The notes under the pieces were generated by a model. It ran no database searches, had not been told where the DNA came from, and worked only from the letters and a program-made list of their open reading frames with translations. Below are positions 9,451 to 36,359 of a stretch of 64,000 bases of DNA, one piece after another. This stretch comes from a virus (Duplodnaviria > Heunggongvirae > Uroviricota > Caudoviricetes). Position 1 is the stretch's first letter; each line of letters starts with the position of its first letter. The stretch lies in IMG/VR virus record IMGVR_UViG_3300042286_000208, positions 70,287 through 134,286 of that record. One strand, 5' to 3'. The translations under genes were made by a program, and so were the position numbers.

Positions 9451-10260
9451 ATGTTTATTACAAAAGAAAATGTAAATAAAGTAATAGAGAAGCTAAAATT
9501 AGATGATTTTATTGTCTATGTAGATATGAAATTCTTTTTAAAAGATATATGTAATCCGTACCATACATCTCCTCTAAGATATATGGAAAAGATTGATCTA
9601 CATAAATATTTTATTGACCTACATAGTATAATGTCTAACTTTTTTAAGAAGCCAGTTTATTTTGTATATTCAACGAAAAAAATAAATATCGAGGGCATGC
9701 CGTCATATAAAGAAGTTTATTACAGTAAATATTTTGATGATGATGAAAGAGCTGAGATTTTAGAAAATATAAAAGATGTTTTTGAGACTCTAAAGAATTC
9801 CTCGATAACATCTGGAGATGAAAAATTCATAGATAGTTCTGATACTTCTATAAGCTTAAAAGACGAATTTGGCTTTATAAAGGGAAATCATGGTGATAGA
9901 ACTGCTGTGGTTATTACCAGAGATAAAATATTCAATGCTTATTCAGATATTGTGACAATTGATCCATATGATTTAACAATAGGAGAATTAAAACCAAAGA
10001 GCATTCCTGATTACTATAAGATTGTTTTATCCATAGCAGGTTACCCAGAATATTCAATTCCTGGAATCCCTGGGATTAAAGAAAAAACAATTTCAAAAAT
10101 ATTGTCAAAGATCGTTGACAAAGGAGAATATATATATTATAATACTACCAGTAGAAGTCAACCTGTGTTCCCTATAACTTACGAGTTATTATCTGAAGTC
10201 TCTGATATATCAAGAGAAGAATACAACATGATTTTAATAAACTGGAAGTTTTTAAACTAA
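9451..10260 (+). CDS. 5'-3' exonuclease / flap endonuclease (RNase H-like, H3TH)
   Basis: SIPGIPGIKEKTISKILSKI helix-hairpin-helix typical of FEN/Pol I 5' exonuclease; VVITRDKI resembles the vS.DkDl block. Confidence 0.5.
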   Translation: MFITKENVNKVIEKLKLDDFIVYVDMKFFLKDICNPYHTSPLRYMEKIDLHKYFIDLHSIMSNFFKKPVYFVYSTKKINIEGMPSYKEVYYSKYFDDDERAEILENIKDVFETLKNSSITSGDEKFIDSSDTSISLKDEFGFIKGNHGDRTAVVITRDKIFNAYSDIVTIDPYDLTIGELKPKSIPDYYKIVLSIAGYPEYSIPGIPGIKEKTISKILSKIVDKGEYIYYNTTSRSQPVFPITYELLSEVSDISREEYNMILINWKFLN

Positions 10261-11610: not shown

Positions 11611-13146
11611 TTGAAATTAGTTTATTACAATAAAGACAAAAGTGAATTTCACAAAAAGAACGGTGAGTTCCAAGGAAACGAAATAACAAAAGAAAAAGTA
11701 TTCGGTAGAGTTGATAATGATTTAGCCTCGCTAGAGTTTACTGATATTAAAAGAAAATCTTTTCAAAAGGGTTCGATATTAGATCCTAACATTTTTGGAA
11801 ACTTCATGATGACCTCCAACTATAGTTGTAAATGCGGTATGACAACTGGATGGGTCAATGAAGGATTAAGCTGCAACCACTGCAACACAACAGTATTACC
11901 AGTGGGTACGAATTTAGAACAATGGGGGTTTATAGATTTAGATCCTTTTCATATTATATCTTATCCCAAATACTTTATATTAGAAAAGATAATTGGAATA
12001 AATGTTCTAAAAAGTATAATTAGAAAAAGTGATTTAATTAACTTAGATGGACAGGCAGTTGAACAAGATGACGATGGAACTTTTAAGAGGTTAAATGACG
12101 CATACCTTCAAACAAAGTTAAAAAATCATAATTATAAAAATCTAGGGTTGAAGAATTTCTATATTTACTATGAAGATATCATTAACTTTTATGCTAGAAA
12201 ATATATATCGAAACAATTTAACGTTGAGCTACCTGATGAATGGTGTTTGTATGATTTCCTATCCGATCCTAAAAATGAAGGAAAAGACATGAATATGTTT
12301 AAATCAGTGGCAACAAAAGAAGACGTATTCATTGATAAAATAATCGTAGCACCAATATCATTAAGACCTATACATAGAACAAAAGATGGTATACAACAGG
12401 ATGAGATGGGAAACCTATATACAAAGATCGTTGCTGAAAAAGTAATTCTTGACGGACACGACCATGTTTTAGATTCTTATATTGAAGAAGCTTTACTGAC
12501 TATCCAATTAAAATATTTTGAATTAGCAAACTATATTGTTAAAGACAAATTGGCTGGAAAAGAAGGTTACATCAGAGATAAGATTAATGGTACTAAACTT
12601 AACTATACAGCTCGTTTAATCTTGTCACCCTCAGATGTATCCAAATATAATGTCGGGGACTGTATACTGCCTTATTTTGTTGCTGTAAACTTTTTAAAAT
12701 ATGAGATCATCAGTATATTATCTTCAATTAAGAACATCAACTACCAAAAAGCATTAGATTATTATACTTTACATCAATATGATTTCAATCAAGAAATATA
12801 TTTGATTATGAAGAAGATTATATCTGATAATGAGGTTGGTGTATTATTAAACCGTGCTCCAACATTGAACTACGGTTCAGTAGTTTATTTAAAATTTGCT
12901 GATATAAAAGACATTTATGAAGATCAAACCTTAGCTGTACATCCATTGACATTCTCATTATATAACGGTGATGTTGATGGAGACGTTGTTACTATCGTTT
13001 TACTTCATGATAAAGAGTTGATCGAAAAAATGAAAAATTCTTTAGGTGTAGAACAAATGTTAACAGATCCCAATAATGGTAAATTGTCTAAAAAACTAAA
13101 TATTAGCAAAGACATTTTATATGGTCTGTGGAAACTTATAGGGTAG
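11611..13146 (+). CDS. multisubunit RNAP beta-prime subunit, N-terminal fragment
   Basis: Zinc-finger CKCG...CNHC; LLNRAPTL matches beta-prime NRAPTLH; YNGDVDGDVV is the catalytic NADFDGD motif; ends at equivalent of beta-prime LGLYY; TTG start with RBS aaaggagg. Confidence 0.8.
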   Translation: MKLVYYNKDKSEFHKKNGEFQGNEITKEKVFGRVDNDLASLEFTDIKRKSFQKGSILDPNIFGNFMMTSNYSCKCGMTTGWVNEGLSCNHCNTTVLPVGTNLEQWGFIDLDPFHIISYPKYFILEKIIGINVLKSIIRKSDLINLDGQAVEQDDDGTFKRLNDAYLQTKLKNHNYKNLGLKNFYIYYEDIINFYARKYISKQFNVELPDEWCLYDFLSDPKNEGKDMNMFKSVATKEDVFIDKIIVAPISLRPIHRTKDGIQQDEMGNLYTKIVAEKVILDGHDHVLDSYIEEALLTIQLKYFELANYIVKDKLAGKEGYIRDKINGTKLNYTARLILSPSDVSKYNVGDCILPYFVAVNFLKYEIISILSSIKNINYQKALDYYTLHQYDFNQEIYLIMKKIISDNEVGVLLNRAPTLNYGSVVYLKFADIKDIYEDQTLAVHPLTFSLYNGDVDGDVVTIVLLHDKELIEKMKNSLGVEQMLTDPNNGKLSKKLNISKDILYGLWKLIG

Positions 13147-13155
13147 GTGAATAGA

Positions 13156-13836
13156 ATGAATCAAACACGAGAAGAATTTATTAAAAATATTAAGCTTGGG
13201 GTCCCTGGAGACAAAGATGGAACTCCTTTAGATTTTAATGTATTACAAAAATCAGTCGCAAATAGCTTTGATAAAAGGGAGAGTATTTTGGTACTCTCTC
13301 CAAGACAATCAGGAAGAACTTTGTCTATAGTATTGAATATCTTGTATGATGTATTTGTTGATGACTGCATTGATACTATAATTGTATCCGATACAATTTG
13401 GCAAACGAATTCGATACTCGATAGAGTATTTAGTTACTTAATCGGACTTAATTCGTTCATGACTGATAAATTAGTTAAATCATTTAGAAAAAAAGTTAAG
13501 GTAAAATCAGCGAACTATGTCGCTAAATTAGACAAAGTAGTTAGATCTAATAAACGATTAGTGATCATGGAAGCTGCACATATCACAGAGAGATATAGAC
13601 TGGATAAATTGGTCGATGGATGGGATTGTTTAATTGTAGAGACCACCGCAACATCTATGACAAAATCCTTTAACAGTTTATTTTTCAAAACCAGGCTAAT
13701 GGATTTAAATGTAATGAACCTTAATATTATAAGATATAAATGGGACGAACTATTCGATGAAAAGTGGTTTAATTTACAAAAAAAACTAGTACCTGAGTCC
13801 ATATTTAAAAGAGAAATATTGCTTGAGTGGGACTAA
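13156..13836 (+). CDS. hypothetical P-loop-like protein
   Basis: Walker A-like SPRQSGRT and Walker B-like LVIMEAAH; same frame as upstream gene but separated by TAG. Confidence 0.3.
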   Translation: MNQTREEFIKNIKLGVPGDKDGTPLDFNVLQKSVANSFDKRESILVLSPRQSGRTLSIVLNILYDVFVDDCIDTIIVSDTIWQTNSILDRVFSYLIGLNSFMTDKLVKSFRKKVKVKSANYVAKLDKVVRSNKRLVIMEAAHITERYRLDKLVDGWDCLIVETTATSMTKSFNSLFFKTRLMDLNVMNLNIIRYKWDELFDEKWFNLQKKLVPESIFKREILLEWD

Positions 13837-13850
13837 GAGGTGATAAGATT

Positions 13851-14228
13851 ATGCAAATAAAAGATATAAAAACTAACACCGTTATTGTTAACGAAGACAT
13901 GGAAGTGAAAGGTAATCTTGAAGTTGTAGGCGATTTAAAAGTTGGTGGTGATATCATCGTAAGTGGTACATTAACAACTGTACATCACGAAACTATAGTC
14001 AAAGAAGATATTAAACAGAAAAAAGTATTAATTTGTACAAAGTGTGGTGGAAATAAATTCACTCCGACTGGACGAGGCATACAACTTACAGTATATATAG
14101 AGAATGGCTCAGCAGGAGGATCTAATGAATATAGATGTTCCAAGTGTGGCAATACTGAATGGGTGTCTTATCCGCCTACATATAATAAAGTCGAACCACG
14201 AGAAATAGAATTACCAGAAGATAAATAG
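13851..14228 (+). CDS. zinc-ribbon protein with N-terminal short beta-repeats
   Basis: Two CxxC pairs (CTKCGG, CSKCGN); repeats VKGNLEVVGDLKVGGDIIV; sits between RNAP subunit genes. Confidence 0.4.
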   Translation: MQIKDIKTNTVIVNEDMEVKGNLEVVGDLKVGGDIIVSGTLTTVHHETIVKEDIKQKKVLICTKCGGNKFTPTGRGIQLTVYIENGSAGGSNEYRCSKCGNTEWVSYPPTYNKVEPREIELPEDK

Positions 14229-14241
14229 GAGGAAGATCTAA

Positions 14242-16299
14242 TTGAAGAAAAGTAAAAACAGAATACTGGGAGAAGAATTATTAGTACCGAGTGGAGCAAC
14301 CAGAGTCGATCCTTATCGACTAATAATGTGGGCTGCTAATACAAGTCAAATAGTTCCACTAAAAGAAACTGATATACCCCGTATATTTACAGGTTTTGAA
14401 AATCAAATTGGTGAGAGATCAAAAGGTATAGCTTATATTACAGCGCCACAATCTGGTAAAGTAATTAAGAGAATAGATAAATATCCTAATTCAGGATACT
14501 ATGATTTAATCATTGAGCTTGATGAAACAGTTAAAAAACCATTCACGAAGGATGGTAAGACAACACCAATGAACAAAAAGGCTTATACAGTTATTTCTGT
14601 AAGGCCAGTGAATAAATTAACAGAAAACTATGGTTATAAAATGAACACAATCAACAGTAAAGATGTCGGTGACGTGATCAAAAAAGACGAATTAATAGTC
14701 TCTTCTGCAGAATATGACGAGCAATTAAACATGAAATTTGGAAGAAACGCCATGGTTGCTTATAGTCCTTTTAATAATGGAACATTTGAGGATGCTATTG
14801 TTGTAAGTAAATCGTTTTCAGAAAAAATGACTTCTTATAAAGTTGAAAAGACGGTAGCTCTAGTTCCAGCAAATGCTATTTTGATTAATCACGAATCAAC
14901 ACAAAGAGCATTATGGAAAATAGGGGAACAAATTGACGATAACTTGATTTTAATATCAAGACCTTTAAACGACAATCTATTAGTGTCACTATCCAATAAT
15001 AATGCCATCAATGAGACCAGATATTCAGATAGAAAAACTTATACAAATGGTGGGAAAGTCGTAGATATAGAAATTTTCGCAAAAAGAGACCAAATCGAAG
15101 GATTCAAATCCAAAGGCGGATTCTATAAAGAAATATTGGATATTTACGAAATGAATAAAAAATACTACTTATCTATTATAAACACAATTGAAGAGTTAGA
15201 CCTATACCCAAGAGAATTGGATGAAAAAGGTAACCCAAATGGTAGATTTATCGATAAGGATAAACTTAAATTCTATACACATGTTGAATTGGATTTCTTA
15301 TATAAAGAAGCAAAGGAGTGGCTAAATGAAGATAGCGTATGGTTGACTGCGAAGAGTGAACCAATTAATACTATAGCATTAAGATATACTATTCTTAAAG
15401 AGGCTTCTTTGGAAACCGGTGGTAAACTTGTTGGTAGATATGGTGACAAGGGTGTTACGTCGATGATTATAAAAGAAGATGAAGAAATGCCTTACTTCTA
15501 TAATCATTTAGGTGAGAAAAGAAATATAGACGTATTCTTAAACGTGTTTGGTATATTCAACCGTGAAAATCCAAGTCAGTTATTTGAGCAACACCTGAGC
15601 TTCATATTAAATAACCTAGCTGATAAATGTAGAACTATGCAAGACATTACAGAAAGACAAAGTTATTTCTTCAGTGTTCTACAAACTTTAGATCGCGATT
15701 ATGGCAAATTTATGTTCGAAGAATACAAAACTCTATCTCAAAAAGATAGAGAGTTATTTTGGAAAGATGTATATGACTATAAATTTCCATTTGTCATGGA
15801 TCCGTTTGAATCAAGTATTAAATGGGATGATATTGTAGAAGTTCAGAAAGAATTCCCTGAGCTTTCAGAATTATATAAGATGGAAGACGGAAGAGAGATC
15901 GTTGCTGGAGATCGCTATATTGTTAGATTAAAACATGACTCTCAAAATAAATCTAGTGTTAGATCTACTGGTAAAAATGATATCGCTGGAAACTTGCCTA
16001 CCGATGGTAAGAAAGAAAGAAAAATTAAACAAGCATTGTTATCAGACAAATCAGCTAAATTCGGTGTAATGGAAAAACTAAACTTAGAGATATTGAATGA
16101 TCCTGATATTATCAGAAAATTCTATGCTATAAATAGCTTATCTCCAGAATCCAGAGTAGAGTTAGTGAAGGAAATCCTTGAAAGAGGGGAAGTATTTAGC
16201 ACCACTCTTGAAATTGATGAATTCCTAAAAGATAGTTCTAATAATAGAAAAGTATTAGATGCTTATTTAGATGTATTAAATCTAAAAATAGAAGATTAA
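14242..16299 (+). CDS. multisubunit RNAP beta subunit, C-terminal fragment
   Basis: RVDPYRLIMWAANTSQIVPL ~ beta NDANRALMGSNMQRQAVP; NNGTFEDAIVVS ~ NGYNFEDAI; GGKLVGRYGDKGVTS ~ GDKxAGRHGNKGV; NIDVFLNVFGIFNRENPSQLFEQHL ~ [22 protein letters not shown]. Confidence 0.8.
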   Translation: MKKSKNRILGEELLVPSGATRVDPYRLIMWAANTSQIVPLKETDIPRIFTGFENQIGERSKGIAYITAPQSGKVIKRIDKYPNSGYYDLIIELDETVKKPFTKDGKTTPMNKKAYTVISVRPVNKLTENYGYKMNTINSKDVGDVIKKDELIVSSAEYDEQLNMKFGRNAMVAYSPFNNGTFEDAIVVSKSFSEKMTSYKVEKTVALVPANAILINHESTQRALWKIGEQIDDNLILISRPLNDNLLVSLSNNNAINETRYSDRKTYTNGGKVVDIEIFAKRDQIEGFKSKGGFYKEILDIYEMNKKYYLSIINTIEELDLYPRELDEKGNPNGRFIDKDKLKFYTHVELDFLYKEAKEWLNEDSVWLTAKSEPINTIALRYTILKEASLETGGKLVGRYGDKGVTSMIIKEDEEMPYFYNHLGEKRNIDVFLNVFGIFNRENPSQLFEQHLSFILNNLADKCRTMQDITERQSYFFSVLQTLDRDYGKFMFEEYKTLSQKDRELFWKDVYDYKFPFVMDPFESSIKWDDIVEVQKEFPELSELYKMEDGREIVAGDRYIVRLKHDSQNKSSVRSTGKNDIAGNLPTDGKKERKIKQALLSDKSAKFGVMEKLNLEILNDPDIIRKFYAINSLSPESRVELVKEILERGEVFSTTLEIDEFLKDSSNNRKVLDAYLDVLNLKIED

Positions 16300-16754: not shown

Positions 16755-16821
16755 ATCAGATAGCTTCCACCTTAATGATGGTGGAAGCATTTCTGGTTTA
16801 TTTAAAAAGGAGACAAACATA

Positions 16822-21226: not shown

Positions 21227-21280
21227 GTAGGGAGGATAAACTTCCTCCCTCAATCATTATACCAAGGAAGGAGGGATTAT

Positions 21281-22669
21281 ATGTTTTCAAAATCAGAATA
21301 CGGAAAATACCTCGAAGGTTTAACAGACGGTCAAAATGTTGCATTTCATATGATAACAGAGTGACTTTTTAACTTTTATTCTCTAGATATAGAAAAAAGA
21401 AGAGATAAACAAGTCTTTGTGTTATCAGGATATGCTGGAACAGGTAAATCTTACCTCATGGGCATAATAGACAAGTTTTTAAGAGAATATTACAGAAACG
21501 ACATGGCTGTTCAAGCATGTGCATATACAGGTAAGGCAAGCACAGTCTTGGCTGAAAAGAATATGAATTCTACGACACTACACCATTTATTATACATACC
21601 AATGGTAAAAGAGACTAACGGTATCAAAAAGGTTATTTGGAAAAGACGTGGTAATTTAGATGATAGAGTTAAACTAATCGTAGTTGATGAATCTTCTATG
21701 ATGCCTTCAAAACTATTCGAAGATTTAAAACTATTGAAACTTCCTATATTAGTTGTTGGTGATGGATTTCAACTACCATCAATAGATGTTGGAACCAATC
21801 TTCTAGATAATCCCGATTATACCTTAACAGAGATCACTAGACAAGCATTAGATAATTCAATTATTAGATTATCAATGTTAGTTAGAGATGGTGGAGAAAT
21901 ACCATATGGTGATTATGGCGATAACGTTCAAGTAATCTCAAAAAGAGGACTTTATGCCGGAGATTATATAGAAATAATGAATAACTATGATCAACTCCTA
22001 GTTGGAACAAACAGGAGTAGGCTATATTACAATACTCTATATAGACAACATTTACTAGGTGAACATTACGATAATAACCCACTTCCGTGTGTAGGAGAAA
22101 AAGTAATTATAACCCAAAATAATTGAGATTTTGAAATTGATGAGGCAGGGGAATACAATCTATTTAATGGACTTGTAGGTATAGTCGAGGATGCCGAGTC
22201 GACAAATATGGAAGAAATTGATAGAATAAAAATAAAAATTAATTTCGGCAAAAAAGAGTATATAACTGATTGATTTATATATGATACCGGTATTTTCAGA
22301 GAGGCACTAGATAATTCTATAAGGAGACCTTATTTTGAAAATGATGTATTGGCTTTAGTAGATGAAAATGGTAAATATTTAATTAAAAAAGAGATCAGTG
22401 AATATAAAAAAATGAGTCGTGAAGAAAAAATGGAATATATTGATATAATGTATAATTCCACTTTTGATTTCATGAATCAAGGGATAAAAATTAATCAATT
22501 AGATTTCGGATATGCAATATCTGTACATAAGTTTCAAGGAAGTGAGGCAGACAATGTTTGTGTTATAGATGAAAGTTATGTGTTTGATAGGGACGAGACC
22601 GAGAACAAAAATAGATGGCTATATACGGCCATAACAAGAGCAAAAAAATTCTTGTTACTAATTAAATAG
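21281..22669 (+). CDS. dda: Dda/RecD-like SF1 DNA helicase; 3 in-frame TGA (21362, 22124, 22271)
   Basis: N-terminal LTDGQNVAFHMITEWL ~ T4 Dda LTEGQKNAFNIVMKAI; Walker A GYAGTGKS; DEAD-like VVDESSM; C-terminal VHKFQGSEADNVCVIDES and TAITRAKK motifs; three listed ORFs stitched in one frame. Confidence 0.8.
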
Positions 22670-23453: not shown

Positions 23454-23462
23454 TTAATTATA
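23447..23462 (+). promoter_or_regulatory. motif TGAATAATTAATTATA, copy 3
   Basis: Exact 16-mer overlapping stop of 23151-23453; 24 nt before ATG 23487. Confidence 0.55.
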
Positions 23463-23486
23463 AAATATACCGAGGAGGTGTTGATT

Positions 23487-25100
23487 ATGCAAGTAGAAGC
23501 TAATAAAGAATTTGTGTTCCTAAACCAACATGTTGGAACTTTCTATACTGGTATAAGTTCCATATTAGGACAGGTGAAGGAATATATACTAAATCAATTT
23601 CCTCAGGAGTTTTTTAAGAGAGTTACAGTAGAAACTGCAGCACCATCTTCACTTACAAATCAGAATATGCAAGATGGTTTAGTAAAAATGTATTATCCTT
23701 TTTTAAATATTGGGGTAAACATTCCTCATGAATATGAAGAAAAAACAACAAGACCTTTATTAGAACGTTCTGAATTATTTATACAGCCTCTTATAAGACA
23801 AAATTACCCAAGAGTCTTGATTGACCCAGATGATAATTTTACTGTAGGTTTTACATATGAATGAGTAAAATCTTCTTATGATTTCAGAATAACGACAAAT
23901 ACCTTTATGAACTCCATAGATGTGATGAACTGAATAAGAACTAAACTTCCACTAAATTTCATAGGATATTTAAATGATTCTCCTTTGGAGTTTGAATTAC
24001 CTCAGAGTATTGTTAAAACAATAGCAGAGCTTCAGGGATATGATTTAATGACAAAGGAAGGTGTTAAAAATCTTGATAGATATTTAATGTCTGTAGGTAG
24101 GATGTTTTCCTTAATTAAAAGAAAAACAAGTGCTACATCAGGTCAAGAGTCCTATTTCATGTCTATAAATTCAGACATTCAAGTATATATAGACAATCTA
24201 GATGCTCCGACTTCAGTTGTTAGAAGTGGTCACACCGAGGGCGAGTATGTTGTAAGTTTTACTGTTACAACAGGAGCATATTTTCCTGTTAGCTATTTAA
24301 TGAAAATAAGAAAAGATTATTTAGTTGCTAGAGTAGAACAAAAAGACTTTCTGGATATCTATGATACACCTAATCAACCACTTGTTGATGGACTGATTTC
24401 AATAGGTGTGGATATTCCTTTAGCGAACAAGAAAGATATTATAAACTACACTACATCGGATGGGAAAAAAGCAATAGGCCACTTGGTTGATGAATGAAGA
24501 TTCGTATACGGGTCCGAACAAACAGAACCACCTATTGTTTCAATCTTCAGCTTAATCGATGATCCAGAATTAAAAAGAGTTCATGCTTATGCAGTAGAAC
24601 ATAGTATTAATCTAGAAAATCTTTTTCATTTTGAAGGATATAAGGTGGCATACACCCAAGATGATATCAATTTTGTCATGAACTATGAAGATTTTGAAAT
24701 CAATATAGAAAACGCTGAATTTAGTGAGGTTTTGATAAGGTTCTATGTAAATAGAGCAACCTATGATGCACTTCAGTTTGCTATGGAGACAGATACTTAT
24801 TACTTTAATAAGAACGTACTGTGTTTCACAGATGTTATTTTATGGGACAGTAAGACAAACATGAATGTCACTAAGAAAGTACAAGTTAATTTCTTTAAAG
24901 ACTCGATTGAAATGTACGATGAAAACCCATTGAAAGCTCTTAAGATCGTAACAAAATATGGTTATGGATATCTCAATATCAAGCCATATGTTGAAGATCC
25001 AGACAGAGAAGATGATGTGATGTTAGTGGTTCTTGGTTATGAGAGCAAGTTGATAGATGGGAAACCTGTTCCAATACTTTATGAAATAATTTTCTCATAA
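23487..25100 (+). CDS. hypothetical 537-aa protein; 3 in-frame TGA (23862, 23931, 24495); possibly virion structural
   Basis: Listed ORFs 23478, 23985 and 24645 share one frame; intervening sequence re-translated with no TAA/TAG. Confidence 0.45.
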
Positions 25101-25204: not shown

Positions 25205-25732
25205 TTGGATTTATTAAAAAATGAACAAATACCTAGTGGGTTATACACGCTTATTGACATTGACAGAACGAATTTAGGTGTCAAACCAATAGCAAAGATC
25301 AGAGAGATTTGCGAGGAAAACGAATATGATTGTGTTTTAGTCAATTCTAATGTTAGACCTGGTATTGTTAAACTCGAAGAGCGTATGGATGAAAGTAAAA
25401 GAAAATATCAAGAAGCCAAAAACGCGAAAAAGAATAAACAAAAAGAAATAAAATCTAAATCATATACAGTGGATAAACCATTAACCATCCAAGAAAATGA
25501 TTTAAACAGAAAAATGAACGAAGTAATAAATGCAGTTAGAAAGAATTATTCAGTAACTTTTACATTTAAAGCCATGGGAAGATATGCAGATCAACATCAC
25601 TGGAAAGATGTAGTGAAAAGATTTGATACATGTTATGATTATATTATGAGTCATGAAAACATAACTTCTCAAACAAGAAAAGAAAATGAAAATACTATTT
25701 ATGCTGTCTTTAGATATACAACAAAAAAATAA
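25205..25732 (+). CDS. infC: translation initiation factor IF-3
   Basis: N-domain IDIDRTNLGVKPIAKIREICEENEYDCVLVNSNVRPGIVKL ~ IF-3 [42 protein letters not shown]; C-domain KEIKSKS...TFTFKAMGRYADQHHW ~ KEIKFRP...TLRFRGREMAHQQ. Confidence 0.7.
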   Translation: MDLLKNEQIPSGLYTLIDIDRTNLGVKPIAKIREICEENEYDCVLVNSNVRPGIVKLEERMDESKRKYQEAKNAKKNKQKEIKSKSYTVDKPLTIQENDLNRKMNEVINAVRKNYSVTFTFKAMGRYADQHHWKDVVKRFDTCYDYIMSHENITSQTRKENENTIYAVFRYTTKK

Positions 25733-25748
25733 AGGGGATTTATAAATT

Positions 25749-26474
25749 ATGGATGAATCAAATAAAAAGGGAACGTATTCATTTGGTATTGAAGTAAACG
25801 GAGACGAAAGAGTTCAATATCTAGAACCGAGTGAGGGACAAGATAAATTTAGAAACAGAATTTACATTAGTAAAGCAAAAACGATGGAAGATATTCTAAA
25901 AGAAGTAGATTCATTTTGTACAAAGTACTATAAGGCAAGTGAACATGGAGTTAGTGCAGATATGATAGATGTCTTCAAAGATTTCAATAAAGTGTATCAC
26001 GCATTAAGAAACCTAACGAAATCCGATGGAAGGAAAATAAGAGGTTTTGAAAAGATAGAAAAATATGGGGATGTTAATATTCCTAAAAGAGGGACCAACA
26101 AAAGTGCCGGTTACGATATCGAATCTATAGAAGATGTTGATATAGAACCAGGAACAACTAAAGTGGTTTTAACTGGATTAAAAGCATATATGATGGATGA
26201 TGAAGTTCTAAAATTATATATAAGATCATCTTTAGCAATAAAAAAAGGCTTGACTTTAGCAAACAACGTAGGTATAATAGATGCAGACTACTATAATAAT
26301 CTGTCTAATGAAGGACATATTATGGTGGCACTAACAAACCTCTCAGATTCAACAGTAACCATCAAAAAAGGTGATAGAGTAGCCCAGGGTATATTTGTTA
26401 AGTATCTAACAGCAGACGATGATCAAACTCTTTCAAGCGAGAGAATTGGTGGAATTGGTAGTACAAATATTTAA
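25749..26474 (+). CDS. dut: dUTP pyrophosphatase
   Basis: dUTPase motifs GYDIESIED, TGLKAYMM, IIDADYYN, C-terminal GGIGSTN; about 90-aa N-terminal extension. Confidence 0.7.
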   Translation: MDESNKKGTYSFGIEVNGDERVQYLEPSEGQDKFRNRIYISKAKTMEDILKEVDSFCTKYYKASEHGVSADMIDVFKDFNKVYHALRNLTKSDGRKIRGFEKIEKYGDVNIPKRGTNKSAGYDIESIEDVDIEPGTTKVVLTGLKAYMMDDEVLKLYIRSSLAIKKGLTLANNVGIIDADYYNNLSNEGHIMVALTNLSDSTVTIKKGDRVAQGIFVKYLTADDDQTLSSERIGGIGSTNI

Positions 26475-27587: not shown

Positions 27588-29546
27588 GTGATTGAAGTTT
27601 TGTACAATAAATATCAAAAAACGAAGGCAGTAAAAGAGCCCTTCAATAAAGAACTATTGTATATTAGAGATGACTATCAGATTTATACGCTGTTAGACTC
27701 TATATTTAAACAGTACGAAAATGATCCTAGAGTAATAGAAGTAAGAACCTACTGGGAAGACGATGAGCCAATGAAGCAATATCGTACTAGAAGCAGACGT
27801 GTTGAAAAAACAAACATTAATGTTTTTAGATATGAGATTGATATTTGGATTGTCAAAGAAGATACTACTGAAGATATAAAAAATAAAGCTTTAGCTAAAT
27901 CTCGCAGACGTAAAAAATCTGAGAAAAATAAAGAATATGTTTTCAGAAAAGTATTTGATAGACATAGTAATATTAAAATAAAATATGATGAGTCAAAGTA
28001 TAAAAAGTATACCGTATATGGCAAACTATTCATGCCTAAACTTGTAAATAATCTGTTCTATTTGATTGAAGGAAGTAGATATTTCACAAGAATGCAGATT
28101 GTGGATAAAATTGTTTATCCTGTTGACCAAAATCATAATAAGAAAATTAAAGCTGTAAATTACAAAAACGAAAGATCTGGTGAAAGAAGCCTATCTTTAA
28201 CAACTCGGTTGCCAAAAATGCAACTAAGTATGTCAAATAGTTTAATTTATGAATTTACGGATATGGATACTGATGAGGCATACTTCGCACCATACTTCAA
28301 CTTATTATTATTTAATAAGAATCAAAATATAATTCAAATATTATTAACTATGTACGCATTCAATATGATAGTTGAAGAGTTTGGGTTAAATGAACCAACT
28401 AGCAATATTTCTATAACCGACGTATACGATGATGAGAATAGACTCATATCAAGAGGACATAGAAACTTAAGAGATACATATGACTCAATGCTACAGGAAT
28501 TAAATACATTCCTTGGAACAAACGTGGTTGTTACAGATGAGGATTATAGTGTAGAGGGTTATCTAAATCTCAGACTGCAATATAAAGAATTTCTTGGACC
28601 TTATGTTAAAGTAGAGAAAGAAGAATTTGAGAACAATGTATTAACTAAAACATTGATATCAGGTCTTCAAAAAATGTTTGAGTCTTATTGTGAGATATTA
28701 ACTTTCAGAGAAACAGACAACTTAAACAAAATGGATAAGAGAAGTCTTGAAGAATTAGGTGGTTCAAAAATTACTGTCAAGGAATTAGAAAACAGTAGAA
28801 TTGATGAGGTTGGTTTTAAATATCATACAATAGACGAGCAAAAAGTCGTTCTAAATGAAGACATCTTTAGAAATCCAGCCTTATTAGTCCATATGTTTGG
28901 TGGAATTATTTTCAAGAAGAATGACTATGTTGAAAGATTGAATAGAACCTTCTTGATGTTCTTATCTATGGAAAGATTAAATGATGAGAACTTGCTAGAC
29001 GAATATGTTATTGACAAGGATGAAGATCCTAATTTAATGACATTTCTTAAATTCTTAATTGTGAACTTTAATGAAATTAAAAAGAGCAATACAAGCAATC
29101 TTTATAATAAGAGAATCAGGGTTTCTGAGAATGTCATCGCACCTATTCGTGTTTTAACATCTCAGGTCTTATTCGCTTTAGTTAAAGAAAATTATTTAGA
29201 TTATGACAGAGTTAGACAGATATTTAATCCTGTTGTAAGTAATAAGAACATGCTAATTAAAGATATTCTTAAAAATGACTTGATTCTATACGACAACAGT
29301 ACTAATGACTCTATAACAAACCATTTTACTTCATTGAAATATACTTTAGCTGGTAACGGTGGGTTGAATTCTAAGAGAATTCCATTCAAATATCGAAGAA
29401 TTGATCCTTCTTATCTGGGCAACTTGTCGCTGGTTAGTTCTAGTGCAACAAATCCAGGTATCACTGGAACAATCATTCCTTTTGCTAAAATAATACTCAA
29501 TGAAAAAACAAGCTCGTTTGAATTTCATCGTTCAAACAATAACTAA
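27588..29546 (+). CDS. multisubunit RNAP beta subunit, N-terminal fragment
   Basis: MPKLVNNLFYLIEGSRYFTRMQIV ~ beta [25 protein letters not shown]; C-terminal YLGNLSLVSSSATNPGITGTIIPFAKI ~ HYGRVCPIETPEGPNIGLI; true TAA stop. Confidence 0.7.
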   Translation: MIEVLYNKYQKTKAVKEPFNKELLYIRDDYQIYTLLDSIFKQYENDPRVIEVRTYWEDDEPMKQYRTRSRRVEKTNINVFRYEIDIWIVKEDTTEDIKNKALAKSRRRKKSEKNKEYVFRKVFDRHSNIKIKYDESKYKKYTVYGKLFMPKLVNNLFYLIEGSRYFTRMQIVDKIVYPVDQNHNKKIKAVNYKNERSGERSLSLTTRLPKMQLSMSNSLIYEFTDMDTDEAYFAPYFNLLLFNKNQNIIQILLTMYAFNMIVEEFGLNEPTSNISITDVYDDENRLISRGHRNLRDTYDSMLQELNTFLGTNVVVTDEDYSVEGYLNLRLQYKEFLGPYVKVEKEEFENNVLTKTLISGLQKMFESYCEILTFRETDNLNKMDKRSLEELGGSKITVKELENSRIDEVGFKYHTIDEQKVVLNEDIFRNPALLVHMFGGIIFKKNDYVERLNRTFLMFLSMERLNDENLLDEYVIDKDEDPNLMTFLKFLIVNFNEIKKSNTSNLYNKRIRVSENVIAPIRVLTSQVLFALVKENYLDYDRVRQIFNPVVSNKNMLIKDILKNDLILYDNSTNDSITNHFTSLKYTLAGNGGLNSKRIPFKYRRIDPSYLGNLSLVSSSATNPGITGTIIPFAKIILNEKTSSFEFHRSNNN

Positions 29547-29610
29547 TGCTTTAAAAAAATTATATATTATAAAACAGTAGTAATAGTCAATTATAATCTG
29601 ATGTATTACT

Positions 29611-29638
29611 TGAAAGAGCCGCTTTTTCTCTGGCTCTT
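29611..29638 (+). other. hairpin aaagagcc-(11 nt)-ggctcttt immediately upstream of the tRNA
   Basis: 8-bp inverted repeat between RNAP beta-N stop and tRNA. Confidence 0.35.
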
Positions 29639-29645
29639 TACTGTT

Positions 29646-29722
29646 GGACCCTTAGCTCAGTTGGTCAGAGCTCCCGGCTCATAACCGGGTGGTCGAAGGT
29701 TCGAGCCCTTCAGGGTCCACCA
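29646..29722 (+). tRNA. tRNA with anticodon CAT (Met, fMet or Ile2), CCA encoded
   Basis: Acceptor stem ggaccct/agggtcc, D-arm agctcagttggtcagagc, anticodon stem cccgg/ccggg with loop ctCATaa, T-arm gaagg-ttcgagc-ccttc, discriminator a, CCA. Confidence 0.85.
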
Positions 29723-30175
29723 TGAATAATATCAATAATCCTGTAGCCGTACACTACAGAGGACACGTTGCCTGACTAGCGTCCACAGGTTAGCAAGTAT
29801 AAGAGGATGTAGGGCTGGAGCGCATAAGTAGGCCACTTTGTTAGTCGCTCAAAACGGAAGATATCGGGTTTTACCCTAGAGCTCTTCGAGTATAAGAAAC
29901 GTAGATTGTTGGTATTATTGATGGTATTATTAATCATCAAGGTTTTAATCCTGGTCTATCAGGTTAAAATAAGGCGAATAGCCTTCATAGCGTGCACCTC
30001 CTCTAAATATAGCCGCCACAATAAATAGAATGAGTGGTGGCTAACTTATTAAAATCAAATATGTTAAATAGAACCGTTACTTACTTCATTCTTACAGTAA
30101 AAGGATCAGGTGTTGCTGGGAAACCAGTAACCTGAAATATTAGTACGGTCAATATAATAAAAAGACTAGTTAATA
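29723..30175 (-). ncRNA. GC-richer structured non-coding region (3' part of the intron-like element, or an independent RNA)
   Basis: No ORF over 57 aa on either strand even allowing TGA; about 42% GC versus about 28% in neighbours; many short stems. Confidence 0.35.
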
Positions 30176-31099
30176 CTAGTCTTTTTTTATTTCTTTTTTT
30201 AGAATGTTTTCTATGTTTTTAAATTCTGTATATGGTATTCTGATAAGTTTTATATTATTATCTTTACAATATTTTGTTTTTATAGAGTCTTTTATTTTTT
30301 GTTTTTTTAGTTTATTAATTGCTTTTTTTTCATCATTAAACACCCATGGTTTATAATGTTGCATTCCATCATATTCTATACATGTGTTACTTTTAGGTAA
30401 ATAAAAATCAAATCTTAAAAGCTCTTTATTCTTACATTCATCAAATGTATATTCTTCTATATAAGATATATGTTTACTTTCTAAATATGATTTTACTTTT
30501 AACTCACCTTTAGAATTCCTACAAGAGGGACATCCCCCACCACGTAAATGATTGTCTGGAGTTGTATTTCAGGGACCGTGTTTACTACATATTATTTTAA
30601 CTTTTGTCCGAGCGTTTATATAATCAACTTTTGAATAGTCATATTTATTTCCATGAATTTTAATAGCTTTTTCTACAAATTCATCAGTAGATGGTTTTTT
30701 AACATTAGAACATTCAGGACAACCATGTCCTCCTAAGTGTGAATTTGGAGATTGAAGAAAATCACCATGCTCATTACATGTAATTATTACTTTTTCTACT
30801 GCTTTTTTGTATATTGTTTTAGAGTAATCATATTTATTATTATGTATAATATTAGATTTTTCTATAAAATCATTTGTGTTTAATGTTCTTTTTTTAGATC
30901 TAGATTTTAAACTACATTTAGGACAGCCATGACCCTTTAAATGAACTGATGCTCTTTGATAAAACTCTCCATGTTCTGGGCAAATAATCAATATTTCTTT
31001 ATGATATGTTGTTATTTCAGATTTAGAATAGTCATACTTATCATTGTGTATTTCTTTAAATTTGTTGATATAAAAAGAGGTATCATGTTTTTTTGGCAT
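30176..31099 (-). CDS. homing-endonuclease-like protein: three tandem Cys-His zinc-ribbon repeats plus C-terminal Vsr/DUF559-like PD-(D/E)XK nuclease; in-frame TGA at 30569
   Basis: Repeat NKYDYSK-x-Y...IIC.EHG.F...HL.GHGCP.CS occurs three times; C-terminal LRFDFYLPKSNTCIEYDGMQHY fits DUF559/Vsr core; RBS aaaggagg; listed ORFs 30569-31099 and 30176-30364 join across TGA. Confidence 0.55.
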
Positions 31100-31269
31100 A
31101 TAATACCTCCTTTCATCTAGCTGTTATCTTTGTTATCTCTTATTTCTCCTATTTTTCGACCTAATTCAATTAGTAATTTGTTTGTGAACATTAAATAAAA
31201 TATATCCCGATATTATTGAACAGGTTCTCACACCCGTCTGATTTATACTAAAGATAAACCATTTCTTAT

Positions 31270-31499
31270 ACTTTCATATAAGCGTAGACTATATCATCAT
31301 CTCTTTCGAGAGCAGCTTACTTCGGGAAATGAGATTTCTTTCCCTACTCCCTTACGGGATAGTCGTTGGGGCTGGAACTTAGAAAGATCCCTGCCTGCTG
31401 ATTGCCCAATCTCTCAACTTTTCAAACCATGGCTTCGACTCACGTCTCGCAGTGGTATGAGAGCTCTAAGGGGTTTCCAGCATATCAAGCTGTTTTAAC
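31270..31499 (-). ncRNA. group I intron-like catalytic core (P4/P7 elements) on the minus strand
   Basis: Minus-strand CAACGACUAU (plus 31359-31368) matches R element GUUCAACGACUA; GAUAUAGUC (plus 31287-31295) matches S element AAGAUAUAGUCC; the GACUA/UAGUC halves pair as P7; CAAUCAGCAGG (plus 31390-31404) resembles Q element AAUCCGCAGC. Confidence 0.5.
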
Positions 31500-34400
31500 C
31501 TATAATCTCACAATTATAGGGCACTGTTTTAATCGTCAATGCGTCATTCTGGAAAACACACCGGTAGGTGTTAACACAGATTCAATTTCTTCATTAGGTC
31601 TATATTCAGAGTATGGGGCTTCTTTATCATCTAAAACATTAGATATTACACCCTTTAAAGCAGTATCATAACTTAATTTATCACCGATACCAAGAGGAAC
31701 GTTTGATTGAATATAATATTTAATCATTACGCCTTCATAACCTTCGCCATCTTCTTTTGCAGTTAAGCTCTGTTTCTCAGGTCGTTTTTGTTTTAGAAGG
31801 TATGAATTATTTTCCCCAACAAATTTCAATTTCTTTTCATATTTTCCACCGAAATCATTTATTAATTTTACAAGTGAAGGGTTTAAGTCTTCCTTATCAA
31901 CATTATAGAACACTTCTATTTCTTTAATTACCCCGTGGTAGTTAGGATATTTTGTAGATGATGGAAGAATATCTTCAACATCACCATATTTATCTGTGAA
32001 GCTATTTGTTAAGAATCCTTCAATACTGTTATCACCGAAATCGTCATATTCTATAACAGGAGTCGTTTCGTCAACATGATCGCCTATTTTGCTCATACTC
32101 TTAATCTTAGTTGTAGGTGTTAATCTTACCATTTCTGCAATTACAACTCTACTCATGCTCTTCTTACTTAGATTTTTGGTTATTATGGTACTATCTTCGA
32201 AAGAGTTATCTATAGGCGCAATTGCCATTTTAGCTAAGGTACCAACAAGCAACTCAACTTTTCCGTCATCAAATGCCTTAAAGAATACATCATTATAGGC
32301 GATGATATCGTCTTTTTTAAACATGTCTTTTTCTCTTAGTCTCATAATCAGCTTATTAGGTGTGTAGAACGCATTGGCGGAGTTTCTTATAAATGTAGTT
32401 GATAGATCGATGAAATCTTTGGTTCCATCTAAATACTCTAATTCAACTATGTTTGTATCCCTGTTAAAGGTTTTTACAACACCATCTTTTTTTGCTTTAA
32501 ATATGAAATCACTACTTAGAAGGCCTGGAACCACTTGTTCAGCTCCTGTGCTCCATAGTCTAACAGAACCTTTATTAAGAGGCATGTTATGTTTAAATTG
32601 TCCAATTGTCATGGATTGTCTTGATGCATCAGCATGTCTTGATAAGAATGGAGAAAGTAATTCGGAAGCAGATAACATTCTAGTATCTGGTGTATTTTCA
32701 ATGTCTTCTATCTCAGAAATATAACCTCTGATACCTTTAATATGTGGTTGATATGTAAGAGATCTGGTAATACCTGATGATCCACCAAAAGCAGTAGCAC
32801 CAGCAGAATATACAGAAAGTTTATTATTATTAAACTCACGCGTAGCTTGTGAGAATGATGCAGCTTTTTCAAGACCCATGAACCCTTTTTGAGAGGTTCT
32901 GGAATATGTCTCAAGTTCCAACACAGGACTTAATGCAGAATAAGTATTTACAGAAGATATCTTAAGAAGATTGAATATAACAGCATTTTCATTTACATCA
33001 AATGTGTTTCTAGTATTCCCTCTAAGATATCCATTCAGATAATCAATATAGGATTTTATTAGTATTTGATTTAGCATACCTGCTATTTGTTCATAGTTTC
33101 GTAATCTGTAGTTTAATACATTACCAAGCTGTCTATAGCTATTATCTGCTAAAAGAGTATTACAATATAATAGTAAATCTAGAATATTACTTGGTATTTT
33201 TTGTTCGTGTAGTATTTCTTGAGTTATCGGATCGACTAAAACGTTTAGTGTTATCTTCATTGTGTTCTTAAAGTGGGTTTTAGTAGATGTAGATATTTTT
33301 TTAATTAAACCTATTCATTCATCATAAGGTTCTGATGTATTGAAGGAACTTAGGTTAAAGTCATGAGGCTTAGCAAAATATAAACCATTCATAAGAACTT
33401 GATTTTCTATAGTTTCTTTGTAATATAGGTATACGTCTTTGAACTTAATTTCAACATATCCTGGTCTAGGATCTCTATCTTTTGATATTGTGTATGCTAT
33501 TTTATATCTATTCATTGTATTTTTCAAACCATATATCATACCAAGAATAAGAATTAGCGGATAATGAGACCCAGCTATTTTAACTTTACTATATCCCATC
33601 TTATTACCAGTATCAGGAAGATCCTCGAATCTTGTATCATAGATATCCCTATACAAGAATTCAGATAAAGTTTCACTGATAAGTGTGTCCGTCTTATAGT
33701 CTGTCGAGTATACTTTATGTTTGTAAATGAATAAAAGTCTATTGGATCCATCAATAAGTTTGTATCCTATTGGTATAAGATCTTCAGGATATTTCCAATA
33801 TTTTGTAGGAACATCGTTTAATTTTAATTCAGTTGAAATATCATCATAGTTAAAGTTTAATGAGTATCCATTTTTTTCTATAGAGTATATGTTTTTACAA
33901 ACTTCACTATATTCTATATTCTTGATGTTGTTTTCTGAATATGATATTAGATTATCCCCATATTTAACCTTTACTTTTGGATCATTCTTTTTGTTATCTA
34001 TTAGTTTTAATACTTGACTTATAGTTTTAGACAAATAACCCTTTTCTCTATCAATAAATAGAATAGAGTAGTTTGTTGTTATTTTGACTGAATCTGGTGC
34101 AGTTTTGGTCACTGGCAAGAAAGCTAATTGATTGTCTACTGTTCATCTGTTACCATTCAAATAAAGGAAATGATTGTCGATTATTTTTGGAATATTAACG
34201 CTGAATCTTATATCTTTATTAGTACCATTGATATTTACTGTGTAAGCCAAATTTAATTTATAGAGTTGATTGTTTGCATTTGAGGTATCCTCAAAATCAA
34301 TCTTCTTCATAGTTAAAGGTAGAATAGAGTTGTTAGATAAACTAGATGTTATATTAATTATATCATCTTTAAATTGTTTATCTATATATTCTTTTGAAAG

Positions 34401-35651
34401 TATTGCGATTGGGGTGTGTGATAATTCTTTTAGTCTTATATCATTAGCAGCTCTTTGATCTATTTGTTCTTCTATAGATGAGTATTTTTCTACATCTACT
34501 TCTGGTAATTTTTTGAATTCATTATATAGAATTTCCATTTCTTCAGCTACATTTTCTTCTGCCTTTAATATGTTTTGTGACTCTTTTTTCTTAAGACCAG
34601 CATATCTTGTAAGATTGGCCTTTATGGTTGGATCCTCTATCAGTTTATCAACTTCAATTTGACCACTGTCTTCTCTTCTCTTTATGTTCTCTACGATGGA
34701 TAAATATATATTGTCTTGTGGATCAGTATTCGGTTCCACTTCAACGTTTTTAATTTTATTCACTTCATAGAATTTTTTAACTACCTCTTCGAATTTAGTT
34801 TCTACAACAATATCTTTAGAATCAAGGGTTTTATCATTGATTGCATCTTCTTCGCTATACACTTCATCTTGTGAAAGAGGCTCTTGTCCTTTACCGCCAA
34901 GCTTGTATAACTTAAAAAGTCTTTGCATATGTTTGCTTTTTAGTTCATTTATGTCAATGTTATCTAGATCAAATTTAATCATAGAGTGAACTTTAGTGTT
35001 ATAAAAAACAACATATTTTATACCTCTGAAGAAGGCTTCTCTTGTTCCTTCGTCATAATTTCAAAAAGCTTTTGTTATTATTGTCGCAGGATCTACTAAG
35101 AATTCTGTATCACCAACAAAACTTCTTTTTCTTACAAGAATGTGGAAATTGTCTACAGACCCATCATAAGGAACAACCAATATATTGTTTAAATACCCTG
35201 CGTTTTCTATAGATTCTTTTAGCATAGTGAAAAGATATTGAGAGATATACTGTGTTGATCTTGGATTTTCTCCTCTTAATTTCTCTACTAATTCTATAGT
35301 CTGTCTTCACTCATTATTAAAATCATATATAAGGTTTTTATTGCTATATGCCAATATATTTTTACGACCTAAATTTATTTTCTTATTTGTTTTTGAGAAT
35401 ATGTCGTTATAATATTCTTTTAGAGGAATAACAACACGTCTTCTTTTCATAGGAGTAATTCTGAATGGTGTATAAATAGATTTGATATTAGCTCCTCTTA
35501 AAAGTTTAGAATTGATAACATCAATCATAGTTTGCTCTTTTAAGCTAGGTATTAAAATCAAATTGTCCTTATTTTTGTTTTGTGTTTCGAAAAATATAGT
35601 CGGATTCTTATAAACAAGACCATTTCTCGCTTTTGAAAGTTTTAAAATCAT
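31500..35651 (-). CDS. multisubunit RNAP beta subunit (second copy, N-terminal plus middle regions, about 1383 aa); 5 in-frame TGA
   Basis: Listed ORFs 35307, 34143, 33315 and 31536 are one frame joined by TGA at 35307, 35061, 34143, 33315 and 31536; motifs IPKIIDNHFLYLNGNR(W)TVDNQ ~ NGTERVIVSQL; DASRQSMTIGQFKHNMPL ~ NDANRALMGSNMQRQAVPL; APIDNSFEDSTII ~ NGYNFEDAI; IGDKLSYDTALKGVISNVL...VLTPTGVFSRMTH ~ GDKMAGRHGNKGVISKI...VLNPLGVPSRM; ends 12 codons later at TAG 31500 with no C-terminal 250 aa. Confidence 0.7.
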
Positions 35652-35672
35652 AGCCGTCACCTACCTATCTCT

Positions 35673-36268: not shown

Positions 36269-36274
36269 AAATTG

Positions 36275-36300
36275 GATGGTTATATACCATTCTTTTTTTG
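36275..36300 (+). terminator. terminator hairpin plus T7 tract
   Basis: ggatggtt-atat-accattc followed by tttttttg. Confidence 0.5.
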
Positions 36301-36328: not shown

Positions 36329-36359
36329 ACGGAAATTGCTGAAAGAGGGGTGACTTATC

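Follow-up and report, generated by a model that had tools for sequence, protein, structure and literature searches.

A predicted AR9-type split non-virion RNA polymerase, with variable cargo between two of its genes, in DNA of an uncultivated low-GC phage

Results

The polymerase genes

The DNA considered here is a stretch of 64,000 nucleotides from a virus of the Caudoviricetes (IMG/VR record IMGVR_UViG_3300042286_000208, positions 70,287 to 134,286), which was analysed at its full length and is referred to as the window, and the system in question is a multisubunit RNA polymerase (RNAP) that is encoded in separate pieces. Between positions 11611 and 16299 of the + strand four open reading frames (ORFs) form a tightly packed string in which none of the four stops at TGA. 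The first (11611-13146, 511 aa, TTG start) is assigned to the N-terminal part of the beta' subunit (beta'N) and the last (14242-16299, 685 aa, TTG start) to the C-terminal part of the beta subunit (betaC) of a non-virion RNAP (nvRNAP) of the kind carried by Bacillus phage AR9 (PBS1 group). A strong ribosome-binding site (AAAGGAGG/AGGAGG) is found 7-9 nt 5' of both polymerase ORFs, and two smaller genes, here called X and Y, lie between them.

An earlier note on this DNA had placed beta'N and betaC of a split RNAP in this segment, and the proposal is borne out by the position of the ORFs, by motifs that are real and by matches in Pfam, PHROG and the PDB. The zinc finger, NRAPTL and DVDGD that it had seen in beta'N are read at residues 73-91, 414-419 and 454-458, the finger taking the form C73-x-C75...C88-x2-C91 (CxC-N12-CxxC, positions read off the sequence). 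The zinc finger of Escherichia coli beta', with C70/C72/C85/C88, has the same spacing. The product ends in ...LYGLWKLIG, 53 residues past DVDGD, and this end aligns to the C-terminus of AR9 gp270. betaC begins, as the note had it, at the RALM-equivalent, with RLIMWAAN (26-33) pairing with RALMGSNMQRQ of bacterial beta, and carries FEDA at 182-185 and GGKLVGRYGDKG at 393-404. The catalytic and conserved motifs are intact in both polypeptides, namely the zinc finger, NRAPTL and the three Asp of beta' and the ED and GxKxxxRxGxKG of beta.

Profile searches matched beta'N to Pfam RNA_pol_Rpb1_2 (1.4e-6) and PHROG 2987 (2e-48), and betaC to Pfam RNA_pol_Rpb2_6 (6e-22) and PHROG 3295 (4e-62), both PHROG families being named 'RNA polymerase beta subunit'. 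The best solved match was AR9 gp270 (7S00_d, 5e-34) for beta'N and AR9 gp089 (7S00_C, 3e-62, full length) for betaC, with phiKZ gp55 at 3e-13 and phiKZ gp71 at 9e-5, respectively. Residue 5 of betaC pairs with residue 15 of gp089 and the alignment continues to the gp089 end. Bacterial subunits appeared at about 1e-10 to 1e-15 in the same PDB search of both ORFs, and the cyanobacterial gamma subunit (8gzg_D, 3.7e-8) was among the matches of beta'N. The comparison with phiKZ and AR9 subunits that had been proposed as a check thus upheld the RpoB/RpoC homology, with the AR9 nvRNAP closest; PDB entry 7S00 is the core of that enzyme (PMC9209446). Identity to any cultured phage is just 26-30% for the two polypeptides.

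The main relatives of the window were found via betaC and comprise the contigs L001 (beta'N 93% and betaC 90% identical at the protein level), L002 (polymerase subunits 73-77% identical) and L017 (89% identical). L002 is part of NCBI assembly GCA_900198705.1 (contig FZPS01000205.1, 848-870 kb of 1.26 Mb) and is syntenic with the window. Across many contigs the polymerase ORFs share 73-95% protein identity, and more distant relatives are L018, with a betaC 41% identical to that of the window, and L019 (32% identical), in which an RVT_1 gene (L019 10794-12158) adjoins betaC. One further contig, L022, was retrieved through the product of a neighbouring gene; it overlaps the window for 11,428 nt at 100% identity and reaches 9 kb further upstream. 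Megablast found no match to the region among 50,697 phage records, a betaC peptide-pattern scan of IMG/VR was likewise negative, and the same scan of GTDB genomes gave a single 2.7-kb contig (L016) in a metagenome-assembled genome (MAG) labelled Spirochaetaceae, which carries no host information.

Two further core polypeptides complete the predicted enzyme. The ORF at 27588-29546 (+, 652 aa) gave zero Pfam or PHROG matches and is assigned to the N-terminal subunit of beta (betaN) on the basis of a PDB match to AR9 gp105 (7S00_c, 5.5e-19), in which residues 456-638 pair with 289-470 of the 496 residues of gp105, and of a tblastn match to AR9 g105 (2.5e-11). In L018 a full-length homologue (1.5e-66) lies directly 3' of betaC, and the earlier identification of betaN is sustained by this order together with the gp105 match. 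The frame that enters at the left edge of the window and ends at 740 (1-740, +) had a weak match to PHROG 3015 ('RNAP beta subunit', 1e-5) and is the 3' end of a gene for the C-terminal beta' subunit (beta'C) that is complete on L022 (7999-9930, 643 aa). The complete product matches AR9 gp154 (7S00_D) at 4e-34 over residues 25-639, phiKZ gp74 at 2e-11 and bacterial beta' at about 760-1010, and a phmmer comparison with gp154 gave 1e-35. The gene starts about 1.19 kb 5' of the window, which holds the last 246 codons (residues 398-643 of 643); the bridge helix and trigger loop are encoded immediately 5' of its left edge. The earlier statement that no C-terminal half of beta' occurs in the window therefore stands for the bridge helix and trigger loop and fails for 1-740, and the search beyond the stretch that it had called for is what recovered the 643-aa gene on L022. 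The four core genes, in the order beta'C, beta'N, betaC and betaN, span about 31 kb. For a fifth subunit of the gp226/gp68 type, phmmer with gp226 against the ORFs of the window and the 9 kb upstream (genetic code 4) gave a best E of 0.29 in what is a fast-evolving family.

The AR9 genome and its GenBank annotation (KU878088.1) were paired with all window ORFs by local tblastn. In this comparison beta'N matched nvRNAP g270 at 1e-23 as against 9e-6 for g145, its paralogue in the virion RNAP (vRNAP), and betaC matched g089 at 3e-64, with the vRNAP beta giving no match at 1e-4. Because each matches the AR9 nvRNAP gene far better than the vRNAP paralogue, beta'N and betaC are assigned to the non-virion set. 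The sites at which beta is split differ between the nvRNAP and vRNAP sets (PMC7598289), and the split points found here coincide, as aligned, with those of the AR9 nvRNAP. The earlier view of a phiKZ/AR9-like RNAP made of separate polypeptides is thus kept and sharpened to the non-virion set, AR9 being far closer than phiKZ.

Genes X and Y at the junction of beta'N and betaC

Gene X (13156-13836, +) encodes 226 aa from ATG, or 229 aa from a GTG at 13147, and had zero Pfam, PHROG or NCBIfam matches and just 4 homologue clusters among 5.8 billion proteins. Among 1.84 billion representatives, a profile of the X family picked up terminase large subunit (TerL) proteins bearing Terminase_6N over the full length of X, and the same profile against the PDB gave nothing useful. 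A single-sequence AlphaFold 2 (AF2) model of X had a predicted local distance difference test (pLDDT) score of 33, which rose to 90.9 with a 23-sequence alignment, and the top Foldseek matches of the model were the ATPase domains of T4 gp17 (2O0H, template-modelling (TM) score 0.68), D6E and P74-26 TerL. The description of X as a P-loop protein in the earlier note is right with respect to this terminase-ATPase-like fold. Its Walker A and Walker B are degenerate. In each of the ten members of the family Walker A reads SPRQ[ST]GR (GRT in the window), with Arg in place of Lys, and Walker B, without its Asp, reads M-E, T-D or L-Y. X ends at the ATPase-nuclease linker motif and the RNase-H-like nuclease domain is absent. 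X is thus a stand-alone terminase-ATPase-like domain, and since the Walker A Lys and Walker B Asp are lost it is probably not active as an ATPase. Its homologues at 38-43% identity come from phage DNA, and the recovered sequence surrounding them contains no RNAP gene.

Gene Y (13851-14228, +, the ORF opening at 13827) encodes an orphan protein of 125 aa with a short beta-rich N-terminal segment and a CxxC...CxxC zinc ribbon. It gave sub-threshold generic zinc-ribbon matches in Pfam (E up to 1), zero matches in NCBIfam and no above-threshold match to RpoP/Rpb12 or another RNAP-subunit family, and its homologues form 2 clusters among 5.8 billion proteins. The automatic JGI name of Y, 'RNA polymerase subunit RPC12/RpoP', was set aside, no family match backing that label. 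The N-terminal 39 aa of Y recur (51% identity, 2e-6) in a 91-aa protein that directly follows beta'N in L017 (L017 4498-4779). This protein has the VxGDLxVxGDIxVxG segment of Y and lacks the zinc ribbon, so that a short module is seen to recur at this site among different sets of cargo.

The distance from the beta'N stop to the betaC start is 1093 nt in the window as against 51 nt in L001 and 15 nt in L002, and X and Y were not found anywhere in the 17-21 kb that are syntenic with these two relatives. In L017 four other small genes occupy the junction. No terminal repeats surround the X-Y insert beyond a 10-nt match that is possibly due to chance. As X and Y are missing in L001 and L002 and other genes take their place in L017, the junction of beta'N and betaC is a hot spot for variable cargo, and the comparison assigns X and Y to co-transcribed passengers and not to the parts of the polymerase. 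The suggestion, hedged in the earlier note, that the two small genes are RNAP-associated does not agree with their absence from L001 and L002, their replacement in L017 and the location of X homologues away from RNAP genes.

Promoter-like motif, transcription unit and DNA chemistry

In the AR9 GenBank record 34 early promoters are marked, and their consensus is AAATATATATTAT, of which the last 10 nt are TATATATTAT. This decamer occurs 12 times in the window where 1.6 occurrences are expected (about 7-fold), a count that 0 of 100 shuffles reached, and 11 of the 12 copies are on the + strand, mostly in gaps 5' of + strand genes. The sites listed are at 744, 6167, 10131, 25104, 29561, 35720, 40251, 51135, 54309, 59108 and 61168. 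The copy at 10131-10140 (+) is the nearest one 5' of four small genes and the beta'N-X-Y-betaC string, and its position is kept in L001 and L002; a perfect TTGACA-17-TATAAT at 10115-10143, found in a sigma-70 scan, overlaps it. The decamer is also nearest 5' of betaN (25104) and stands before beta'C (L022 7463). The nvRNAP genes accordingly lie behind an AR9-like AT-rich early motif, of which use by the vRNAP is presumed. After the gene that follows betaC, a terminator-like hairpin at 16763-16788 (+) has a 9-bp stem with 6 G-C pairs and a T-rich tail; this is a consensus match only, and the hairpin is probably the end of the early transcription unit. A second hairpin is present at 36274-36292.

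The DNA of AR9-group phages contains uracil, and the AR9 nvRNAP needs deoxyuridine in the template strand of its promoters. The window encodes a dut-type dUTPase at 25749-26474 with a 95-aa N-terminal extension (TIGR00576, just above the cut-off), and the lineage probably has thymine DNA. Since a dut-type dUTPase argues against a deoxyuridine genome, uracil-dependent promoter recognition of the AR9 type may not apply here. An NT5C-type deoxyribonucleotidase is encoded at L022 6963-7442, and it points toward uracil DNA, opposite to the dUTPase.

A virion polymerase gene split by a group I intron

The - strand of the window carries, in two exons at 31117-35660, a gene for the large beta-like vRNAP subunit that is orthologous to AR9 g189. 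Exon 1 (31539-35660) contains four in-frame TGA codons that are read as Trp, and in the standard code it falls apart into ORFs at 35307-35660, 34143-35060, 33315-34142 and 31536-33314, all in one frame with only TGA between them. Split in this way, the gene had been overlooked in the earlier note. Its code-4 translation gives one uninterrupted match to PHROG 14872 (4e-131), and tblastn pairs the gene with AR9 g189. The gene is interrupted after ...SRMTH by a putative group I intron of 332 nt without an ORF (31207-31538), and exon 2 (31117-31206) encodes DIFYLMFTNKLLIELGRKIGEIRDNKDNS, the counterpart of the AR9 g189 C-terminus, VDIYNALYLNKALVHLKREIGKIYSE. Splicing would give a product of 1403 aa, to which exon 2 contributes 29 codons. 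Truncation of the gene at SRMTH was considered and rejected, as the comparison with g189 places the 29-codon exon at 31117-31206; a second exon was also sought at 29547-30175 and none was found. The genome is thereby predicted to encode a second, virion RNAP set, of which the beta-like subunit is the only one in the window.

The intron matched Rfam RF00028 with 60.4 bits (gathering score 50, E 5e-15) over the full model in a scan of 451 nt. This match was missed both by a gathering-threshold scan of the whole window and by an E-value scan of 2.2 kb, as default filters fail in long scans. In the window and in its relatives the last base of the upstream exon is U and that of the element is G. 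In L002 (11207-11560) and L016 (about 2356-2712) a 354-nt insertion with 76.6% identity to the intron interrupts the nvRNAP betaC at GRY|GDKG, and the three copies have 102 predicted base pairs in common, 15 of them with compensatory changes. Removal of the intron restores the conserved frame and the g189-like C-terminus. From these features the element at 31207-31538 is classified as a group I intron and its splicing is predicted. The betaC of the window has no intron, and the 90%-identity cluster of the L002 betaC includes both interrupted (404 + 270 aa) and uninterrupted (687 aa) forms, a mixture that is consistent with a mobile intron. One family of group I introns is thus seen in two different polymerase genes, the vRNAP beta-like gene of the window and the nvRNAP betaC of its relatives. 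Exact matches to the 22-nt core of the intron numbered 0 in IMG/VR and 1 in JGI metagenomes. On the reverse complement of L021 (JGI Ga0172377_10206664) a further copy of the intron core, with 88% identity, occupies 771-1009 and is flanked by a zinc-finger endonuclease-like ORF and a TnpB/IS605-OrfB-like ORF, an arrangement that recalls IStrons.

A free-standing homing endonuclease gene directly follows the vRNAP beta-like gene at 30176-31099 (-, 307 aa, one in-frame TGA). Its code-4 product matches PHROG 559 (HNH, 4e-79) over the full length, has three DUF4379/DUF723 zinc-finger repeats and a C-terminal nuclease domain, and matches homing endonucleases of AR9. With respect to AR9 itself, g264 (220773-221978) is labelled as the C-terminus of the virion beta, matches the beta'C of the window phage (phmmer 2e-5) and has a note of its own that cites an rpoC model; g264 is probably the C-terminal fragment of the virion beta'.

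TGA as a tryptophan codon

Around 31 in-frame TGA as against about 150 TGG were counted in real genes of the window in a manual tally. The TGA-bearing regions are clearest at 31539-35660 (-), 21227-22669, 23454-25100, 30176-31123 (-) and 36330-39314. TGA of the window pairs with Trp in the AR9 Dda-like helicase and in homing endonucleases, and the helicase and endonuclease are full-length only under code 4, with single-stretch profile matches crossing the TGA. L001, L002 and L017 carry TGA where beta'N of the window has TGG (L001 4410 and 5684; L002 about 8699). From this pairing we conclude that TGA is read as Trp in the phage lineage. Code 25, in which TGA is Gly, was rejected because each differing TGA in the real genes compared pairs with TGG, and the longer gene calls on the contig L003 were rejected as a case of TGA/TGG polymorphism, L003 being 100% identical to the window with only the code of the gene caller differing. 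The only tRNA gene in the window is a tRNA-Met at 29646-29722.

The TGA codons cluster in three segments, 16.8-25.1 kb, 30.2-35.7 kb (-) and 36.3-39.3 kb, the last of which holds a gene of 995 codons. The TGA-rich segments have no preceding TATATATTAT or are separated from it by one of the two hairpins (16763-16788, 36274-36292), and the units that run from motif to terminator are free of TGA, including those of the nvRNAP subunits and the DNA polymerase.

Other genes of the window

A split family-B DNA polymerase, SbcC/SbcD, a DnaB-like helicase and RNase H are all encoded in the window, and the same functions are among the core genes of RNAP-encoding jumbo phages (PMC7598289). A retron-type reverse transcriptase is present at 62346-63533 (NF038233, 3e-46, under its cut-off), and a helix-turn-helix (HTH) protein of 205 aa with faint similarity to sigma-70 region 4 is encoded directly after beta'C (811-1428). 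Small genes at about 1421-1654, at 25205-25732 and at L022 5073-5387 have IF1-like (PF01176), IF3_N-like (PF05198) and weak PTH2-like domains, the PF05198 match falling on the syntenic gene of L001 and not on the window copy. The precomputed and partly weak or faint matches of these small genes suggest phage interference with translation.

Discussion

The window very probably derives from an uncultivated low-GC jumbo phage (about 30% GC in the window) with a two-polymerase transcription system of the AR9/phiKZ group, and beta'N and betaC are best understood as two of the four polypeptides of its nvRNAP. We propose that beta'N, betaC, betaN and beta'C would assemble into a four-polypeptide core as do gp270, gp089, gp105 and gp154 in AR9, and that a fifth, promoter-specificity subunit of the gp226/gp68 type is to be expected elsewhere in the genome. 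In phiKZ and AR9 the virion polymerase reads early promoters and the nvRNAP transcribes the late genes (PMC7598289). By analogy, the virion-packaged polymerase to which the beta-like subunit at 31117-35660 belongs would be injected with the DNA and start at AT-rich early promoters containing TATATATTAT. The promoter at 10131 would then drive four small genes, beta'N, X, Y and betaC until the hairpin at 16763-16788, and the new nvRNAP would go on to transcribe late genes. Homology, motifs, gene structure and the variability of the insert are seen in the sequences themselves; the assembly of the enzyme, the order and timing of these transcription events, the use of the promoter motif and the inactivity of X are inferred.

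Several observations weigh against this account or limit its reach. Identity to AR9 is only 26-30%, and the whole account rests on sequence. The search for a subunit like gp226/gp68 gave no match in the window and the 9 kb upstream. The dUTPase argues against a deoxyuridine genome, so that promoter recognition may differ from that of AR9, and since position 10131 also has a perfect sigma-70 promoter the operon may be transcribed by the host RNAP. Terminases were inside the AF2 alignment of X and may have biased the model toward a terminase fold match. Finally, the polymerase genes share their transcription unit with X and Y and a Y-like segment is found at the same site in L017, and it is conceivable, if improbable, that X and Y have a strain-specific link to the enzyme, possibly as nvRNAP factors.

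It might be held that both polymerase ORFs belong to the virion-packaged, early polymerase, given that the two sets are homologous and both split and that the PHROG labels do not separate them. Each ORF is, however, far nearer to an AR9 nvRNAP subunit than to the vRNAP paralogue, and beta is split at the nvRNAP site, in a system where the splits differ between the sets (PMC7598289). A separate orthologue of g189, the vRNAP beta-like gene, is moreover present at 31117-35660, and the genes are found downstream of an early-promoter motif, as are the nvRNAP genes of AR9, and assignment to the virion set is thus very unlikely. The presence of one relative on a 1.26-Mb NCBI contig and of another in a MAG labelled Spirochaetaceae could instead point to fragments or pseudogenes of cellular rpoB/rpoC captured in a bacterial contig. 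We give this hardly any credence, as bacterial subunits match 20-50 orders of magnitude worse than those of AR9, the ORFs are intact, preceded by ribosome-binding sites and 73-95% identical at the protein level across many contigs, and the neighbours are all phage genes.

The role of the genes at the junction is the other matter on which readings diverge. X and/or Y could be accessory subunits or factors of the nvRNAP, such as an RpoP-like zinc ribbon or an ATPase-like assembly or translocation factor, and the packing of the genes in one transcription unit with overlaps or gaps of at most 15 nt, the automatic JGI name of Y and the L017 protein with the N-terminal segment of Y directly after beta'N would be in accordance with this. 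An accessory role is nevertheless improbable: both genes are missing at the same site in L001 and L002, in which the polymerase subunits are 73-93% identical, homologues of X have no RNAP gene in the surrounding recovered DNA, X belongs to the terminase ATPase family with its catalytic residues lost, Y has no above-threshold match to an RNAP subunit, and the AR9 nvRNAP core works as four polypeptides only (PMC7598289). It is likewise unlikely that X serves in packaging as the functional ATPase half of a split terminase, although its relatives of the Terminase_6N type match over the full length, its fold matches T4 gp17, the terminase gene of AR9 is itself in five pieces and a homologue of X in L006 lies near a prohead-protease-like gene. 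A change of Lys to Arg in Walker A of T4 gp17 is lethal. In X this Lys is Arg in ten of ten family members and the Walker B Asp is missing; no partner with a nuclease domain is adjacent, the 17-21 kb of synteny in L001 and L002 lack X, and searches of 5.8 and 1.84 billion proteins yielded only a handful of homologues, fewer than would be expected of an essential packaging gene. The interpretation of X and Y as passengers in a cargo hot spot is therefore preferred.

The AR9 nvRNAP (gp270, gp154, gp105, gp089 and gp226; PDB 7S00, 7S01, 7UM0 and 7UM1) is the best solved match for all four core polypeptides of the window phage and shares with them the split points, the catalytic motifs and the early-promoter core TATATATTAT. 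AR9 likewise has a second, vRNAP set, in which a beta-like gene with group I introns is followed by a homing endonuclease (g188 after g189). The core genes of AR9 are scattered over about 150 kb, whereas those of the window phage are confined to about 31 kb, where beta'N and betaC are close neighbours, and betaN of the window phage is 150 aa longer than its AR9 counterpart. AR9 g270 has an intron and beta'N of the window has none, and AR9 has gp226, of which no homologue was found in the window and the 9 kb upstream. The window phage also differs from AR9 in encoding a dUTPase and reading TGA as Trp. The nvRNAP of Pseudomonas phage phiKZ (gp55, gp74, gp71-73 and gp68; PDB 7OGP) has the same architecture and belongs to the same two-polymerase strategy but is much more distant than that of AR9, and the late promoters (TATG) and early motif of phiKZ differ from those of AR9 (PMC7598289). 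In cyanobacteria beta' is split into gamma and beta' after the double-psi beta-barrel with the catalytic Asp, as in the window phage, and the coincidence of the jumbo-phage and cyanobacterial splits has been described (PMC7598289); the cyanobacterial RNAP is, however, cellular, contains alpha, omega and sigma subunits, has its beta in one piece and shows much lower similarity. As to X, it has in common with the terminase ATPase domain (Terminase_6N, T4 gp17 2O0H) the fold, the PRQxG context of the P-loop and a C-terminal F-x-x-E-x-L, but unlike a terminase large subunit it has no nuclease domain, has lost the Walker A Lys and Walker B Asp and is variable between strains in presence and position.

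The distribution of TGA may bear on the timing of gene expression. Recoding of stop codons in late genes has been reported in other phages with a similar pattern (bioRxiv 10.1101/2021.08.26.457843), and the genetic code could here be part of the temporal programme, with late products including the packaged polymerase completed only once a UGA decoder appears. We regard this as a tentative and rather doubtful reading, and it is weakened by the TGA codons in beta'N of the relatives and in the helicase.

The polymerase described here is a distant member of the already known AR9-type system, for which the current understanding stands. The AR9-type split polymerase, so far seen in a few cultured phages with uracil DNA, is now extended to an uncultivated low-GC lineage, a natural variation that can help to tell the indispensable features of the four-polypeptide core from the rest and to trace changes in promoter recognition. 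Gene callers that use the standard code break the vRNAP gene here and beta'N in the relatives, so that surveys of phage polymerases under-count them. As the junction of beta'N and betaC is a hot spot for cargo, adjacency to polymerase genes is in itself no proof of function.

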